Part shown: positions 2,929 through 11,078 of the stretch, one piece after another
How the letters are laid out: every line of letters begins with the position of its first letter
Numbering within the stretch: position 1 is the stretch's first letter
Source of the DNA: a plasmid
Strand: one strand, 5' to 3'
Assembly (NCBI RefSeq): GCF_056746865.1
Contig: NZ_JBWKMP010000006.1
Length of the DNA: 63,119 nucleotides
Notes under the pieces: generated by a model
The model's input: the letters and a program-made list of their open reading frames with translations, nothing else
Databases searched by the model: none
Told to the model about the DNA's origin: nothing
Position numbers and translations under genes: made by a program

Positions 2929-3294
2929 TTTACTCCCCCGCTCCGGCGGGGGTATGGCCTGCCAGGCCGCCGGAAAACCCTGGCAGGCTTACGCCTGCCT
3001 GAAATGCAGGAGGGCCGCGCCTGCGGCGCTGCCCTTCCTGCCCGTCATGGTGTGAGGCATTTTTCTGTTATGTCGTTTCTGTTGTTCTGATTTCCGGAGG
3101 CGGGGACACCTTCGGCTCCCGGCTGCCTGGCGGCATCCGGTCGTCAGGCCCGACTCCGACAGGCAGCTGCTGGCGCACCCGCCAGTCTCCGCCGAACCCG
3201 CTGGCGCGGTTTCGGGCTGCCGCTACGGTCCGATGTCTGAAAAACCAGGCTTGCAGCGACCGTTCCGGTCGCGCCGCCCCTGTCGCGCCGGAAA

Positions 3295-4449: not shown

Positions 4450-4513
4450 TTAACCCTTGCCGTCTGCCTGTGCAGGCGGCAGGATACGTTCAGACATCTC
4501 ACCAGGAGGAACC

Positions 4514-5428
4514 GTGAGTAAGAAGAAAAACACCACAACGCCCACGCCGCATGATGCCGCGTTCCGGTCGTTCCTGGCGAATCCCGACGTCGCCAGAGAT
4601 TTTCTGGAACTGCATCTTCCGGCGGAGTACCGGCAGTTGTGCGACCTGTCCACGCTGAAGCTGGAACCCGCCACCTTTGTTGAGCCGGACCTGCATCAGT
4701 ACGCCAGCGATATCCTCTGGAGCGTGAAAACCACCGGGGGTGAAGATGGCTATGTTTATACGCTCATCGAGCACCAGAGCACCGAAAATCTGTACATGCC
4801 TTTCCGCATGTTACGTTACAGTGTGGCGGCGATGCAGAGACATCTGGAGCAGCACAAAACGTTGCCACTGGTGATTCCTGTACTGTTCTATCATGGTGAG
4901 CGCAGCCCGTACCCGTACAGCATGAACTGGCTGGACTGTTTTGAGAATCCGGCACTTGCGGCTAAAATATACACAAAGCCGTTTCCGCTGGTTGATATCA
5001 CTGTCGTTGATGACAATGAAATCATGAACCATCGCCGGATGGCCGCACTGACGCTGCTGATGAAGCATATCCGCCATCGTGACATGATGGAGCTGCTGGA
5101 CAAACTCCCGCAGGTCATGGTGGAAATTTCAGACGAGCAGGTGCGTGTTCTGATTCATTACATCGTTAACGCAGGGGACTCTGTATCACCGGAATTTATG
5201 CGGGCGCTGGCTGAGCGTCTGCCGCAGCATGAGGATAAACTGATGACTATCGCAGAACGTCTTGAGCAAAAAGGTCGCCAGGAAGGCAGGATGGAAGGAC
5301 GCATGGAAGGAGCGCTTGAAAAAGCCCTGGCTATTGCGTGCCAGCTTCAGAAAATGGGGATGACGCCGGAGCAGATTAAGCAGGCTACCGGACTTTCCGA
5401 TGACGAACTGAAGAAAATCACTCACTGA
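4514..5428 (+). CDS. Rpn family recombination-promoting nuclease (YhgA-like, PD-(D/E)XK)
   Basis: Product ...PTPHDAAFRSFLANPDVARDFLELHLP...YTLIEHQSTENLYMPFRMLRY...PLVIPVLFYHGERSPYP... closely resembles E. coli YhgA/Rpn proteins as recalled; AGGAGGA Shine-Dalgarno before GTG 4514. Confidence 0.85.
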   Translation: MSKKKNTTTPTPHDAAFRSFLANPDVARDFLELHLPAEYRQLCDLSTLKLEPATFVEPDLHQYASDILWSVKTTGGEDGYVYTLIEHQSTENLYMPFRMLRYSVAAMQRHLEQHKTLPLVIPVLFYHGERSPYPYSMNWLDCFENPALAAKIYTKPFPLVDITVVDDNEIMNHRRMAALTLLMKHIRHRDMMELLDKLPQVMVEISDEQVRVLIHYIVNAGDSVSPEFMRALAERLPQHEDKLMTIAERLEQKGRQEGRMEGRMEGALEKALAIACQLQKMGMTPEQIKQATGLSDDELKKITH

Positions 5429-5440
5429 TGAGAACCACAA

Positions 5441-5467
5441 AGCCCGGCAAAATGCCGGGCTTTTTTG
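5441..5467 (+). terminator. rho-independent terminator after rpn
   Basis: AGCCCGGCA-AAAT-GCCGGGCT stem-loop followed by TTTTTT. Confidence 0.6.
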
Positions 5468-5490
5468 TCAGCAGGAGCAGAGCAAACAGC

Positions 5491-5673
5491 ATGACGATTG
5501 CAGAACGTCTTATACAGAAAGGTTTCGACGAGGGTTTTAAACAAGGGGCTCTTGAAGTGGCGCGGGAAATAGCCTGCCGGCTTCGGGATATAGGCTGGCC
5601 GCCGGAACGGATTCAGGAGGTCACGGGACTTTCCGGTGAAGAACTGAAAAAGCTGTTTCCTGATGAGCAGTAG
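5491..5673 (+). CDS. small stand-alone paralogue of the Rpn C-terminal domain (RpnS-like)
   Basis: 60-aa ORF MTIAERLIQKGFDEGFKQGALEVAREIACRLRDIGWPPERIQEVTGLSGEELKK... with AGGAGCAG Shine-Dalgarno; aligns with the last ~60 aa of the upstream Rpn (MTIAERLEQKG...TGLSDDELKK). Confidence 0.6.
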   Translation: MTIAERLIQKGFDEGFKQGALEVAREIACRLRDIGWPPERIQEVTGLSGEELKKLFPDEQ

Positions 5674-5703
5674 CCTGGCATTCAGCCAGGCTGTGAATCA
5701 CGC

Positions 5704-5955
5704 TCACACATCCTCTGCCGTTTCCCCCAGTTCATTTTCCAGTCGCCTGATGATATCTGCCTTACGCATCCCCTGCATGTGAGGCAGCAGGTCACGGACT
5801 GAAAGTGCCTGGGTGGTCCTCCAGACGGTGACGTCCACCTGTTCCGCATTTTCCCAGGCGTGCCATGTTCTCTGCGTCACGCCAAATTCTCTGGCCGCTT
5901 TTTCGCGTGACCAGAGCATGCTTTTTCGCCAGATTCGCAGTTCCCAGCCGGTCAT
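5704..5955 (-). CDS. small helix-turn-helix DNA-binding regulator (XRE/Cro-like)
   Basis: 83-aa ORF with an HTH-like segment SREKAAREFGVTQRTWHAWE; AAGGTG Shine-Dalgarno; divergent from Frpo-like copy 2. Confidence 0.6.
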   Translation of the reverse strand: MTGWELRIWRKSMLWSREKAAREFGVTQRTWHAWENAEQVDVTVWRTTQALSVRDLLPHMQGMRKADIIRRLENELGETAEDV

Positions 5956-5966
5956 AAAACACCTTT

Positions 5967-6060
5967 GAAAAAGTGAAAAAACTTCACTTTATTTTATCAT
6001 CACAATTGCCAAATCAGCGCGATAAATAAGTGTAAAAAAGTGAAGAAATTTCACTTTTTT
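5967..6060. promoter_or_regulatory. two AGTGAA-N-TTCACT palindromes (candidate operators) in the promoter region of the HTH gene
   Basis: AAAGTGAAAAAACTTCACTTT (5969-5990) and AAAAAGTGAAGAAATTTCACTTTTT (6035-6060), AT-rich, directly upstream of the - strand HTH gene. Confidence 0.4.
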
Positions 6061-6171
6061 TGCTTGTAAATGTCGTGCGGTTTTCTCTGTTTTCACCTGT
6101 GCGGGAGTGGTGTGCCAGTGACCACCACATGCCATTGTTGTGCCGTCGTTTTTCTTCAGTCGCGCCGTATG

Positions 6172-6520
6172 CGGCGCTCCCTGCACACCTTACGGTGTGT
6201 AAGGCCACTGCGCCTGATGGCGCAGCTGTCTCTGCCTGTCTGCCGCCGCACTGCGGCCTGTTCTCCGCAGACGGACTTTCCGGGGGTACATACATGACCA
6301 CATCCCGTTTCAGTCGTCCAGGGGGGAGATGTACCAGCCACAAAACTTTTTGCCGCAGGCGTCAAAAACTTTTGCGTCTGCCCCCGGACAACTGCCCCGT
6401 GACGTGGTGAGCGTCCCCCGTCGGAAAGGTCCACTGCGGGGAAATCCCCGAAGACCCGGACGGCAGAAGGAGCTTCGCTCCTCCGGGAAATGACCTGGCT
6501 GTCCCGGCAGTCGTGACGAT
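6172..6520 (+). repeat. Frpo/ssi-like element, copy 2 (candidate single-stranded-DNA promoter)
   Basis: Homologous to 3295-3640 (same 5-prime core and shared downstream blocks such as CTGCCCCGTGACGTGGTGA and GGAAAGGTCCACTGCGGGGA); ends at the Shine-Dalgarno of ORF 6535. Confidence 0.5.
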
Positions 6521-6534
6521 GAGGAGACAATGTG

Positions 6535-7383
6535 ATGAATCAGACTTTACCCACTGCTGACCTGAATACTGCCGGCACGACAGATGTTATTCCGTCTGTG
6601 GCTATCGACCGCATCATCGCGCAGCGTAACGAAGGTATTGCACTGTTCATGCAGGCGATGGAATGCCTGGCGACAGCGCGCAAGATTCTGCTCGATGCGT
6701 CAGGTGATATTTTTCTTTACGGGTTTGAAGACTGCGTGACTGATTCCGTTCGTCGCATAGATAAACCGGAAGAAGCGAAAAGGAATATCACCCGTCTTGC
6801 CGACCGGAAAATCTGGGACCGCCTGATGACAGATACGGGCATGTACACCTTCATGAGTTCATGCCAGCGTGATGAGTGGAACAGCCAGCTGATGAGCGAC
6901 ACCTGTCCTGAAATCACCCTGGACAATGTACTGGCAACATTCCGCCATCTGAATGCCTGCAAGATGCAGACATTTGAACAGGGACTGATTGATGTCTACC
7001 GGAAATTGTCATGGGATTACAGAACCAATAATCCCTGCCGTCTGGGTAAGAAAATCATTATTGAAAACCTGCTGTACCGCTGGAGTAACGGGCGTGTGAC
7101 GCTGGACTGCAGCGGACGGGAGGCACTGGATGACCTGGTACGTCCGTTTTATCTGCTGGAGGGGCGCAACGTTCCTGACTTCAGGAACAGTATCGGGGCG
7201 CAGTATGGTGAATTTCTCGGGAACGGCGACAATGTCGGTAAGCTGTTAGAAGGGGAATATTTTACGGTGCGTGGCTACCAGAAAGGGACCGTACACATTG
7301 TCTTTAAGCGTTCTGACCTTGTTGAAAAACTGAATGATATTATTGCACGGCATTATCCAGGTGCATTGCCGCCACGAGTCTGA
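6535..7383 (+). CDS. hypothetical leading-region protein (family guess: DUF4942-like)
   Basis: ~282-aa ORF with GAGGAGA Shine-Dalgarno, directly downstream of Frpo-like copy 2; the family assignment is from memory only. Confidence 0.7.
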   Translation: MNQTLPTADLNTAGTTDVIPSVAIDRIIAQRNEGIALFMQAMECLATARKILLDASGDIFLYGFEDCVTDSVRRIDKPEEAKRNITRLADRKIWDRLMTDTGMYTFMSSCQRDEWNSQLMSDTCPEITLDNVLATFRHLNACKMQTFEQGLIDVYRKLSWDYRTNNPCRLGKKIIIENLLYRWSNGRVTLDCSGREALDDLVRPFYLLEGRNVPDFRNSIGAQYGEFLGNGDNVGKLLEGEYFTVRGYQKGTVHIVFKRSDLVEKLNDIIARHYPGALPPRV

Positions 7384-7468: not shown

Positions 7469-7804
7469 TCAATTGTTGTTCATATCGATGCCATCTTTCC
7501 TGCCTGAATCTGTCTTTTTAGGTGCTGTTTTAGAGGAAGAACGGCGGGATGGTTTTTTCGATTCTGCTTCCCGAATAATGTCACGAAGTGCCTTCTCTCC
7601 TACTTCATACCCTGCATTTTTGAGCGTGTCACGAACATCTGCCAGTGTATAACCCTTTGTCCTTACCAGGACAATAATGTCATCACGAATGGCATCAAGA
7701 AAATCACGCAATGTTTTCCGTTGAGCGGTGAGATCTGGCAATTCCGATAAAGCAGCTTTTGCCAGCTGGATGTCATCATCTGAGTAAAATTTTTTAGAAG
7801 CCAT
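7469..7804 (-). CDS. hypothetical protein with a basic Ser/Lys-rich C-terminal tail
   Basis: 111-aa ORF from ATG (7804) with GGAGA upstream; lies between the leading region and oriT. Confidence 0.5.
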   Translation of the reverse strand: MASKKFYSDDDIQLAKAALSELPDLTAQRKTLRDFLDAIRDDIIVLVRTKGYTLADVRDTLKNAGYEVGEKALRDIIREAESKKPSRRSSSKTAPKKTDSGRKDGIDMNNN

Positions 7805-7859
7805 TGGCACTTTCTCTCCGTTTCATGTTGAAGCCTGATTTTATCATCAAAAACTGACT

Positions 7860-8376: not shown

Positions 8377-11078
8377 GTGAATGCAGTCATTCCGAAAAAG
8401 AGAAGGGACGGCAAGTCTTCGTTCGAAGACCTGGTATCCTACGTCTCTGTCCGGGATGACATGACCGATGAGGAACTGAATTTATCTTCTTCTTCGCAGG
8501 CTGAACAACCGCACCGAAGCCGTTTCAGTCGCCTTGTTGATTATGCGACACGCCTTCGAAATGAGTCATTCGTGGCGCTGGTTGATGTCATGAAGGACGG
8601 CTGCGAATGGGTCAACTTTTATGGTGTCACCTGTTTTCATAACTGTACTTCTCTTGAAACTGCTGCTGCAGATATGGAGTACATTGCGGACGGCAGGCAC
8701 ACTATGCAAAAGATGATACTGACCCTGTTTTTCACTACATTCTTTCCTGGCAGTCACATGAAAGCCCGCGTCCGGAACAGATTTATGACAGTGTACGTCA
8801 TACGCTGAAATCACTCGGCCTTGCCGACCATCAGTATGTCTCTGCCGTGCATACTGATACAGATAATCTGCACGTCCATGTGGCTGTTAACCGGGTACAC
8901 CCTGAAACGGGTTATCTGAACCGGTTATCATGGAGTCAGGAAAAACTCAGTCGTGCCTGCCGTGAGCTTGAACTGAAGCATGGTTTTGCTCCGGATAACG
9001 GTTGCTGGGTCCATGCGCCGGGAAATCGTATCGTTCGCAAAACTGCCGTTGAACGTGATCGCCAGAACGCTTGGACACGCGGAAAAAAACAAACTTTTCG
9101 CGAGTATGTTGCGCAGACAGCGGTCGCTGGTTTACGCAGTGAACCTGTACATGACTGGTTATCCCTGCATCGTCGTCTTGCGGAAGATGGTCTGTACCTG
9201 TCTCAGATGGACGGAAAATTTCTGGTGATGGATGGCTGGGATCGCAACAGGGAAGGTGTACAGCTTGACTCGTTTGGTCCCTCCTGGTGTGCAGAAAAAC
9301 TCATGAAAAAAATGGGTGACTACACGCCAGTGCCAAAAGACATTTTCAGCCAGGTGGAAGCACCAGGACGCTATAATCCGGACTTCATTGCAGCTGATGT
9401 TCGCCCGGAAAAAATCGCTGAAACAGAAAGTCTGCAGCAGTATGCCTGTCGTCATCTTGGAGAACGTCTGCCGGAAATGGCACGGGAAGGACGGCTGGAA
9501 AACTGCCAGGCTATTCACCGCACACTGGCTGAAGCGGGATTATGGATGCGTGTTCAGCATGGTCACCTGGTTATCTGTGACGGTTATGATCATAACCAGA
9601 CTCCCGTTCGTGCTGACAGCGTATGGTCACTGCTGACGCTCGACAATGTGAATCAACTCGATGGTGGCTGGCAGCCTGTACCAACAGATATTTTCCGCCA
9701 GGTTACGCCAACAGAACGCTTCCGTGGTCGTCGTATGGAGAGCTGTCCTGCGACCGATAAAGAATGGCACCGTATGCGTACAGGTACGGGGCCGCAGGGG
9801 GCTATCAAACGCGAACTGTTTTCTGACAAAGAAAGTCTGTGGGGATACAGCATCAGCCATTGTAGCCCTCAGATTGAAGAAATGATCACACAGGGTGAGT
9901 TTACCTGGCAGCGTTGTCATGAGTTGTTTGCACAACAGGGACTGATGCTACAGAAACAACATCACGGGCTTGTTGTCGTTGATGCCTTTAATCATGAGCA
10001 AACGCCGGTGAAGGCCAGCAGCATTCATCCTGATCTGACACTGGGGCGTGCGGAGCCACAGGCCGGACCTTTTGTGAGTGCTCCAGCAGATTTGTTTGAC
10101 AGGGTGCAACCTGAAAATCGCTATAACCCGGAGCTGGCTGTCAGTGACAGGTACGGGGTCAGCAGTAAACGTGACCCAATGCTGCGCCGGCAGCGACGTG
10201 AAGCCAGGGCTGAGGCCCGTGCTGACCTGCGTGCCCGCTATCTGGCATGGCGTGAACAATGGCGTAAACCGGATCTGCGTTATGGGGAACGTTGTCGGGA
10301 AATTCATCAGGCATGCCGTCTGCGGAAGTCACACATTCGTGCGCAGTACGATGATCCGGCATTACGTAAGCTGCATTATCACATTGCAGAAGTTCAGCGA
10401 ATGCAGGCATTGATCAGGCTGAAAGAAGACATCAGGGATGAGCGACAGAAACTTATTGCTGACGGGAAGTGGTATCCACCCTCTTACCGTCAGTGGGTCG
10501 AAATTCAGGCTGCTCAGGGAGACAGGGCTGCTGTATCGCAGTTGAGAGGCTGGGATTATCGCGATCGCCGTAAAGACAAGTCACGCACAACGACGACAGA
10601 CCGCTGTGTCGTGCTTTGTGAACCGGGCGGAACGCCGGTATACGGTAATACCGGTGATCTCGAGGCCCGTCTGCAGAAGAACGGGAGTGTTCGTTTCCGT
10701 GACCGTCGGACGGGAGAGTTTGTCTGTACGGATTATGGTGACAGGGTTGTTTTCCGTAATCACCATGACCGCAATGCGCTGGCAGATAAACTGGATTTGA
10801 TTGCACCGGTATTATTCGGGCGTGATCCACGCATGGGGTTTGAACCAGAAGGAAACGACAAACAATTTAACCAGGTCTTTGCTGAAATGGTTGCCTGGCA
10901 TAATGTGACAGGCCGTACCGGTCACGAAGACTACAGGATTACGCGACCGGACGTGGATCATCACCGTGAAGGAAGTGAACGCTACTACCGCGATTATATC
11001 GCGGCGAACAGCAACGATGACGCATCACTGCCTCCGCCGGAGCAGGATAAACGCTGGGAACCGCCTTCTCCAGGTTAA
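8377..11078 (+). pseudogene. nikB: NikB relaxase (MOBP), frameshifted in this sequence around 8698-8708
   Basis: N-terminal 143-aa ORF (8377-8808) and 743-aa ORF (8847-11078) join if one nucleotide is restored; the second frame upstream reads ...DPVFHYILSWQSHESPRPEQIYDSVRHTLKSLGLADHQYVSAVHTDTDNLHVHVAVNRVHPETGY (His-rich relaxase motif); combined ~900 aa. Confidence 0.85.

Follow-up and report, generated by a model that had tools for sequence, protein, structure and literature searches.

Counter-oriented leading-region gene ygeA of IncI1-type plasmids encodes a small XRE-type protein that probably represses its own promoter at AAGTG-N9-CACTT palindromes

The window, that is, the whole stretch of plasmid DNA that was analysed, has 63,119 nucleotides (63 kb). 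The 551 bases around the locus described here have matches in 2018 PLSDB plasmids, nearly all of them conjugative MOBP/MPF_I plasmids typed as IncI1/B/O or IncI-gamma/K1. The sequence identifies the window as an IncI1-type plasmid and the helix-turn-helix (HTH) gene under study as ygeA in the R64 nomenclature. The R64-style gene order is psiB, psiA, ygaA, ardA, ygcA, ygdA, ygdB (Rpn/Transposase_31), a small ORF, ygeA, ygfB (DUF4942), yggA, nikA and nikB, having ygeA and yggA on the opposite strand; oriT/nikA are about 2 kb from ygeA, which lies in the leading region. The features of the locus, in window coordinates, are the following:

4457 to 5428, rpn module, with a tail ORF at 5428 to 5673, forming one flank of ygeA
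5672 to 5692, GC-rich hairpin AGCCTGGC-N5-GCCAGGCT with an 8-bp stem, between the convergent 3' ends of ygeA and the Rpn-tail ORF
5704 to 5955 including the stop codon, minus strand, ygeA, 83 aa, ATG start
5960 to 5965, minus strand, Shine-Dalgarno sequence AAGGTG, 4 nt before the ATG at 5955
5970 to 5990, proximal putative operator O1, AAAGTGAA-N5-TTCACTTT, 8-nt arms with 100% complementarity, core AAGTG-N9-CACTT
5991 to 5999, minus strand, predicted extended -10 element TGaTAAAAT of the ygeA promoter, assigned from conservation
6034 to 6060, distal putative operator O2, AAAAAAGTGAA-N5-TTCACTTTTTT, 11-nt arms with 100% complementarity, proposed as an auxiliary site
6159 to about 6530, plus strand, Frpo/ssi-like single-strand promoter element, repeating the element at 3282 to about 3650; context only, outside the putative switch
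6532 to 7383, ygfB (DUF4942), preceded by this second Frpo-like element
7469 to 7810, minus strand, yggA, between ygfB and oriT

The preliminary description had placed the HTH gene between the rpn module and the second Frpo-driven gene, which is right, as the rpn module and its tail lie on one side and the Frpo-like element before ygfB on the other. It had also taken this gene as the sole minus-strand gene of the leading region, which is wrong: yggA is on the minus strand too. The divergent intergenic region between ygeA and ygfB measures 577 bp, and the two Frpo-like elements share a 67-nt repeat with 94% identity; the elements ssi1-3 of IncI1 plasmids have been described previously (PMC12672017). 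Folding of the T-strand (minus) between 5950 and 6540 gave -137.7 kcal/mol (z = -9.0). The hairpin at the convergent 3' ends is not a canonical intrinsic terminator because it has no T-run on either strand, and the terminator scan called none at its position. PADLOC gave nothing significant. The F plasmid also has a 'YgeA', reported to be Frpo-driven (PMC9849209, PMC12672017); this is a mere name clash, since the F gene lies on the strand of the leading genes and its 95-aa product is unrelated, and the F leading region contains neither a ygeA homologue (tblastn at best E = 0.12 over 13 residues) nor the operator. A literature search turned up no paper on what ygeA of the R64 type does.

The product of ygeA is named 'helix-turn-helix transcriptional regulator' by PGAP (WP_000148285). 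The 83-aa start is favoured over the 71-aa start of some records because AAGGTG sits 4 nt upstream of its ATG; the N-terminus MTG(W/Y/F)EL is kept in all family members, and a shorter form of the gene is annotated in LC567051. Comparison with the Salmonella homologue of locus L011 (82% identical, same synteny) gave dN 0.104 and dS 1.381, and the resulting dN/dS of 0.075 indicates that ygeA codes for a protein and is under strong purifying selection. With the window protein alone, the Pfam scores stay below the cut-offs (HTH_31 23.5 bits against 27, HTH_3 16.8 bits against 23), whereas among 35 relatives HTH_31 was found in 29 and HTH_3 in 27 at E <= 0.01, the best at 2.8e-8. A phmmer search with the single YgeA sequence against PDB sequences found Aca2 (7ezy, E = 8e-4), and the family profile placed Aca2 first (E = 1.8e-6 over positions 1-52), followed by HipB and MqsA; it also matched the Aca2 entries 8w35, 7vjo and 7b5j, and HipB 2wiu at E = 8e-4. 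The AF2 model from the 35-sequence alignment is a five-helix bundle (pLDDT 89.4) whose helices span residues 3-12, 17-24, 28-35, 42-60 and 65-76. Its top Foldseek matches in the PDB are all XRE HTH proteins (Aca2, HipB, HigA2, SinR), with weak E-values, all 0.36 or worse, as expected for a domain of only ~60 residues. These results support YgeA as an XRE-type HTH protein with a predicted five-helix fold, having the HTH domain of Aca2 as its nearest solved relative, so that the initial call of a small XRE/Cro-like protein is backed by the family, the PDB profile matches and the structure model, while Pfam remains sub-threshold for the single protein.

The family is large. An exhaustive profile search recovered 1436 cluster representatives at E <= 1e-3, 100 of them at E <= 1e-10; homologues of ygeA were found by tblastn in 3699 PLSDB plasmids, 1675 of them at <60% identity, and its intergenic element is present in 1250 of 5426 complete E. 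coli genomes (~23%). PHROGs assigns the protein to family 6962, of unknown function. PGAP also calls a 65-aa ORF on the minus strand across the operators (5989-6186), which is considered spurious, having no conserved counterpart in L011 or in the Enterobacter locus L004. Since this ORF is not conserved, ygeA is taken as monocistronic, without an upstream operon partner, and no same-strand neighbour or toxin gene was found for it in the window, L004, L011 or the Salmonella IncFIB locus L005.

The two near-identical palindromes noted earlier upstream of the HTH gene are real, and their first coordinates were right to within 1 nt. Together O1 and O2 span 15-105 bp upstream of the ygeA ATG. O1 has its centre 25 bp and its end 15 nt before the ATG; the centre of O2 is a further 67 bp upstream of the O1 centre, near -63 relative to the predicted +1, and both operators are contained in a 38-nt direct repeat spaced 67 bp start-to-start. 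Allowing <=1 mismatch, AGTGAA-N5-TTCACT occurs in the 63 kb only at O1 and O2, against a chance expectation of 0.19, and two of 100 shuffles reach two sites. This enrichment in the window alone is modest evidence, the comparative evidence being far stronger.

The comparison covered 39 family loci, including 30 further ones from a scan of one genome per species, with representatives of Escherichia, Erwinia, Yersinia, Citrobacter, Rahnella, Pluralibacter, Enterobacter, Buttiauxella, Hafnia, Providencia, Pantoea, Symbiopectobacterium and others. With up to two mismatches allowed and within 300 bp upstream of the family gene, AAGTG-N9-CACTT was found in 28 of the 39 loci, in about a dozen genera; elsewhere in these loci the background density is 0.36 sites per kb. 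In most of the 28 motif-bearing loci the proximal site has its centre at -22 to -26 from the ATG, and in five at -34 to -56. The number of sites per locus is one, two or three, with a second (sometimes a third) in 15 of the 28, which means that the family can do without the second palindrome, as about half of the motif-bearing loci have a single site. Where a locus has several sites, adjacent centres are mostly 55-57 bp apart; one locus has 64 bp, and the IncI1 group 67 bp. These distances correspond to about n+0.1-0.4 helical turns, and DNA looping between in-phase operators was set aside for lack of a clear in-phase signal. L004 and L005, with proteins 47% identical, again have two AAGTG-N9-CACTT palindromes upstream. 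Between the window and L011 both operators and ATGATAAAATAAAGTG are kept, with the other intergenic sequence scrambled and synonymous sites saturated, and among IncI1 variants O1 is invariant, substitutions falling mostly in the inter-operator spacer. Distant homologues on pOXA-48/IncL and IncM-like plasmids and in Serratia, Gilliamella and some Providencia lie in other contexts without the AAGTG motif, and the operator model leaves them out.

The half-site bases covary with the recognition helix of the protein. Proteins with helix RTWHAWE have AAGTG[A/T]A half-sites (window, L018, L011), those with R[T/S]YK[D/A/V/T]YE have AAGTGCA (most loci), and those with R[T/S]YKRYE have AAGTG[A/C/T]C (L041, L044, L046 and L008, from four genera). 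Short of an experiment, this covariation is the best argument that YgeA recognises these sites, and at the level of sequence it supports protein and palindromes as a cognate pair. The palindromes are accordingly regarded as the putative operators of YgeA itself because of their conservation across genera, their usually fixed position relative to the ATG and the -10-like element, and the helix/half-site covariation.

The sites could instead belong to another protein, a host factor or a plasmid regulator, with ygeA as a bystander, either an orphan antitoxin-like gene or a decaying one. Protein and DNA are linked here through sequence comparison, and YgeA has weak NCBIfam and PDB similarity to antitoxins, including HipB and MqsA; the NCBIfam antitoxin matches reach only 12-14 bits against cut-offs of 62-79. 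Gene and site, however, occur together on different backbones at a largely conserved distance and covary, no toxin is co-transcribed (the gene is monocistronic with a convergent neighbour), and the dN/dS value is not that of a decaying gene. Lone motifs in IMG/VR are never beside a family gene and look like chance: a scan with the operator consensus AAGTGCAA-N3-TTGCACTT gave 79 isolated hits, none of which has a family HTH gene within 450 bp. That YgeA is only a bystander is therefore considered very improbable.

With the loci anchored on the proximal operator, a TAnAAT-like hexamer lies immediately 5' of AAGTG across genera (consensus TtaaAatAAGTG / TtaaAatAAGTGCAAT...). In the window it is TAAAAT, at 5996-5991, preceded by TG. 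This -10-like element is invariant in the IncI1 variants, the spacer further upstream varies, and no sequence is conserved beyond the distal operator. A simple sigma-70 scan called no minus-strand promoter here because the -35 is poor (and variable), and the assignment of the ygeA promoter is deduced solely from conservation of the -10-like hexamer. The sole call of the scan was a plus-strand promoter, GTGAAA-16-TATCAT at 5973-6000, attributed to chance, as the hexamer is TATCAC in the IncI1 variant L016 and is absent in L004 and L005.

Here it is proposed that YgeA is a small XRE-type HTH repressor, most likely acting as a dimer, on the AAGTG-N9-CACTT palindromes. O1 comes directly after the -10-like TAAAAT, and the predicted start (~5984) falls inside its left arm; as O1 covers this start, bound YgeA would exclude RNA polymerase and produce negative autoregulation. 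O2 would serve as an auxiliary operator that sharpens or extends repression, either through cooperative binding or by occluding the A/T-rich region upstream of a promoter with a weak -35. From these comparisons we infer binding by YgeA, its dimer stoichiometry, the position of the promoter and repression. Autoregulation of ygeA is well supported by comparative genomics, and the earlier description of the gene as autoregulated agrees with operator conservation, with the position of the operators relative to the ATG and the -10-like element, and with the helix/half-site covariation.

The palindromes might, on the other hand, act mainly as nucleic-acid hairpins, either as part of a single-stranded promoter or priming architecture of the T-strand or as an RNA stem-loop next to the ribosome-binding site, which YgeA would bind to block translation in the way known for Aca2. 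As single-stranded DNA, O1 folds at -5.8 kcal/mol (z = -3.2) and O2 at -8.9 kcal/mol (z = -4.1), and in the 591-nt T-strand fold both form separate small hairpins outside the long hairpin; the end of O1, 15 nt before the ATG, is beside the Shine-Dalgarno sequence, and Aca2 binds both promoter DNA and a 5'UTR hairpin (bioRxiv 10.64898/2026.07.27.740549). What is conserved, however, is the specific AAGTG/CACTT sequence and not mere pairing, with half-site bases that covary with recognition-helix residues, and the imperfect palindromes of L011, L044 and the distal site of L005 would weaken a hairpin but be tolerable for a dimer. The stems are short and A/T-rich, with no Rfam match above the gathering score, and the ygeA mRNA would have an incomplete O1 hairpin because the predicted +1 is inside the left arm. 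A main role as hairpins is thus considered quite improbable, and the palindromes are treated below as putative double-stranded operators.

A tblastn search of 38 family loci used leading-region proteins of the window and of reference plasmids as queries. Some 20 loci carry at least one marker (NikA/NikB/MobA, DUF932, DUF5983, DUF4942, KlcA/ArdB-like, Hok, PsiA, PsiB, ParB-like, SSB, methylases or Rpn), and in every one of these the leading-region markers all run opposite to the HTH gene. Only the YggA homologue is co-oriented with it, apart from locus L036, where the NikA/YggA block is on the other side, in the reverse layout. The leading genes are templated by the transferred strand and ygeA needs the complementary strand, so ygeA mRNA would come from double-stranded DNA only. 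The double-strand part of the earlier claim is in this way upheld by sequence orientation, ygeA being predicted to be transcribable only after complementary-strand synthesis. [quoted passage not shown] The whole model, with YgeA as a dimeric autorepressor, O1 as its main and O2 as its auxiliary operator, and expression dependent on double-stranded DNA, is held with good confidence, as the probable explanation of the locus.

The preliminary description also suggested that the switch may gate leading-region expression, for which the plasmid sequences give no support. No further operator was found in the 63-kb window, where only the two ygeA sites are exact and three one-mismatch hits compare with 2.0 expected, nor in the first Frpo-like copy; the remaining 26.5 kb of the reference IncI1 plasmid NZ_OP378630.1, whose ygeA region is 100% identical to that of the window, has zero matches. 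A wider regulon on the plasmid was thus rejected for both stretches. [quoted passage not shown] General gating is unsupported because operators are absent elsewhere, the neighbour is not constant, many loci have the ATG-proximal site only, and the promoters in question are reported to silence themselves. With no other target on the plasmid, the output of YgeA would be purely local, at its own promoter and the junction before the oriT-proximal Frpo operon, or on the host chromosome. A regulator having itself as its only plasmid target leaves the selective function unexplained, and this was counted against the model.

At the local level, YgeA on O1/O2 could also control the adjacent Frpo-like element and ygfB/DUF4942, in the manner of an Aca-like controller, blocking a double-strand promoter or read-through once the plasmid is double-stranded. 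This is the gating idea of the preliminary description, narrowed to the operon next door. The operators, within the 577-bp divergent region, are separated by ~100 bp from where the Frpo-like repeat begins, and the layout of a leading gene, a structured GC-rich region, operators and the HTH gene recurs in L004, L005 and L011. The plus-strand promoter-like sequence at 5973-6000 overlaps O1 and reads towards O2; its loss from L016, L004 and L005 weighs against such a function, as does the variation of the divergent gene, with nothing conserved beyond the distal operator. [quoted passage not shown] Control of the adjacent element and ygfB is thus considered unlikely, and autorepression is retained as the preferred explanation.

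Among known systems, Aca2 (PDB 7ezy, 7vjp/7vjq, 7b5j, 8w35) is the best match to the N-terminal HTH of YgeA in both sequence and fold. It is an autorepressor acting via two similar but unequal inverted repeats in and just downstream of its promoter (PMC6765145), and like ygeA it is encoded on mobile elements, beside anti-defence genes. The differences are in size and architecture, in genetic arrangement and in operator sequence. Aca2 has ~115-125 aa with a C-terminal DUF1870 dimerisation domain, whereas YgeA has 83 aa, the alignment ends at about residue 52, and DUF1870 gave no match at E <= 0.1 in YgeA and none among the 35 relatives. The Aca2 operator core is TTCG-N6/N8-CGAA (PMC6765145), against AAGTG-N9-CACTT for ygeA. 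Aca2 is encoded downstream of an acr gene in one operon, whereas ygeA is monocistronic and counter-oriented. Aca2 also binds RNA.

HipB, another small XRE HTH protein of similar length, matches the family profile and appears at Foldseek ranks 3-8. It binds several palindromes with widely spaced half-sites, TATCC-N8-GGATA, in its own promoter, a geometry close to AAGTG-N9-CACTT. HipB is an antitoxin co-transcribed with the kinase HipA, its co-repressor, whereas ygeA has no partner gene and a different operator sequence; a type II antitoxin of the HipB, MqsA or HigA kind was rejected for ygeA, which has no same-strand toxin neighbour in the window, L004, L005 or L011. The C proteins of restriction-modification systems (e.g., C.Esp1396I; Foldseek ranks 43-44) are small XRE autoregulators with paired palindromic operators, and they serve as timers upon entry of a mobile element into a new host. 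C-boxes consist of two adjacent sites within ~35 bp, follow an activate-then-repress logic and are linked to restriction-modification genes. The ygeA sites, in contrast, are 55-67 bp apart and show no sign of activation, and no restriction or modification gene was found beside ygeA in the window.

Autoregulated plasmid repressors of establishment or leading-region genes have been described in Reg576 of the Bacillus plasmid p576 and in the ArdK/ArdR-CUP system of the IncN plasmid pKM101, and their synthesis after entry ends a transient phase of expression (PMC6294495). [quoted passage not shown] C proteins and Reg576 offer a functional analogy in the timing of events that follow entry, but YgeA belongs to neither family, and membership of the Aca2, antitoxin, C-protein or Reg576 type was rejected, each failing at least one defining feature.

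The closest published entry is family 22 in Supplementary Table 1 of Samuel & Burstein 2024 (PMC11541004), with 2333 members, a median position of 2 from oriT and strand -1. It is labelled 'HTH transcriptional regulator; aca6' and adjoins Rpn families at positions 3 and 4 (PMC11541004), which matches the succession of ygeA, Rpn tail and Rpn in the window. From this order and strand, not from sequence, ygeA would correspond to family 22 (representative WP_151333485.1). The family is a catalogue entry, with no operator, mechanism or function described (PMC11541004). The 2024 leading-region survey thus already lists the family, as uncharacterised. In its mode of action the element would be an autorepressor of the classical XRE kind.

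IncI1-type plasmids are major carriers of ESBL genes, and ygeA is widespread on them. Work on leading regions focuses on the genes of the transferred strand with single-strand promoters, leaving conserved counter-oriented genes unexplained. The operator AAGTG-N9-CACTT, the three helix/half-site specificity classes and the promoter model defined here make YgeA directly testable. Beyond its own promoter YgeA may have three routes of action: host chromosomal AAGTG-N9-CACTT sites, a bound roadblock or convergent transcription insulating or silencing neighbouring single-strand promoter operons in the established plasmid, and Aca2-like DNA/RNA binding. Taking the three together, a role as a reporter of the double-stranded state, that is, a dedicated establishment-to-maintenance switch, is given a small chance only. 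If ygeA only autoregulates, it would be an ordinary small repressor; a trans target would make it the first plasmid-encoded regulator linked to the transition from single- to double-stranded DNA in these plasmids.

The plasmid region around ygeA, the gene for an XRE-type HTH protein, contains the following additional features:

5428-5673, + strand: 81-aa ORF directly 3' of rpn, its start overlapping the rpn stop
5989-6186, - strand: 65-aa 'hypothetical protein' (WP_001161115 and relatives), a PGAP call in numerous IncI1 records
3282-~3650 and 6159-~6530: two copies of a Frpo/ssi-like element, recognized by a shared repeat
7469-7810, - strand: yggA, the second counter-oriented leading-region gene, adjoining oriT
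8377-11078, + strand: nikB, the relaxase gene, broken into two ORFs

The 65-aa ORF spans both predicted ygeA operators (AAGTG-N9-CACTT palindromes) and extends into the Frpo-like element; since no conserved counterpart was found in the diverged ygeA-family loci compared, it is unlikely to be a real gene. The two Frpo/ssi-like copies are 94% identical over 67 nt and divergent beyond, and for the second copy, the transferred strand is predicted to form a long hairpin (z = -9.0 for the predicted fold). Both copies are also overlapped by called ORFs with near-identical peptides, which are spurious.

The 81-aa ORF after rpn has 72-75% DNA identity to positions 5243-5415 and aligns with the C-terminal positions 215-273 of TIGR01784; it is a duplicated and diverged copy of the Rpn C-terminal tail, which may be encoded as a small protein on its own.

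The homologues of yggA have the same counter-orientation in nearly all related loci, and the product name given by PGAP, 'molybdopterin-guanine dinucleotide biosynthesis protein MobC', looks like a misnomer. Deletion of the homologue Orf35 of pCTX-M3 increased mobilisation >200-fold, and Orf35 has been implicated in the repression of nikAB/tra (PMC6112013). The relaxase gene nikB is present as two ORFs, of 143 aa and 743 aa, whose reading frames differ. Compared with the intact nikB of the reference IncI1 plasmid NZ_OP378630.1, it has 3 extra bp near 8485-8488 and 2 extra bp near 8688-8690, the latter causing a frameshift; the split corresponds either to a sequencing error or to a relaxase pseudogene.

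Among the relatives of ygeA, four Buttiauxella loci (L027, L028, L030 and L032) have three operator copies upstream of the HTH gene at 55-56 bp intervals, centred at about -135, -79 and -24 from its ATG. In the two upstream copies one half-site is weakened, with GCCCTT replacing GCACTT, which suggests an operator array of graded affinity. The loci of Yersinia (L021), Rahnella (L024) and Enterobacter (L042) lack the distal AAGTG site and have instead, upstream of the proximal AAGTG-type site, two long, unrelated palindromes (TTCGTACTCAGTACGAA, twice, -70 to -117 from the HTH ATG), which may be bound by another regulator.

A more distant homologue, 32% identical, is found on a pOXA-48-type IncL plasmid (L003, 4543-6556). 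It is neither counter-oriented nor solitary, being part of a same-strand gene string in which it follows a 153-aa ORF and precedes a gene annotated as 'restriction endonuclease', and upstream of this string there is a different palindrome, AAAATGTTCA-N4-TGAACATTTT. Given this same-strand context and the different palindrome, this distant branch of the ygeA family is therefore put to a different use.
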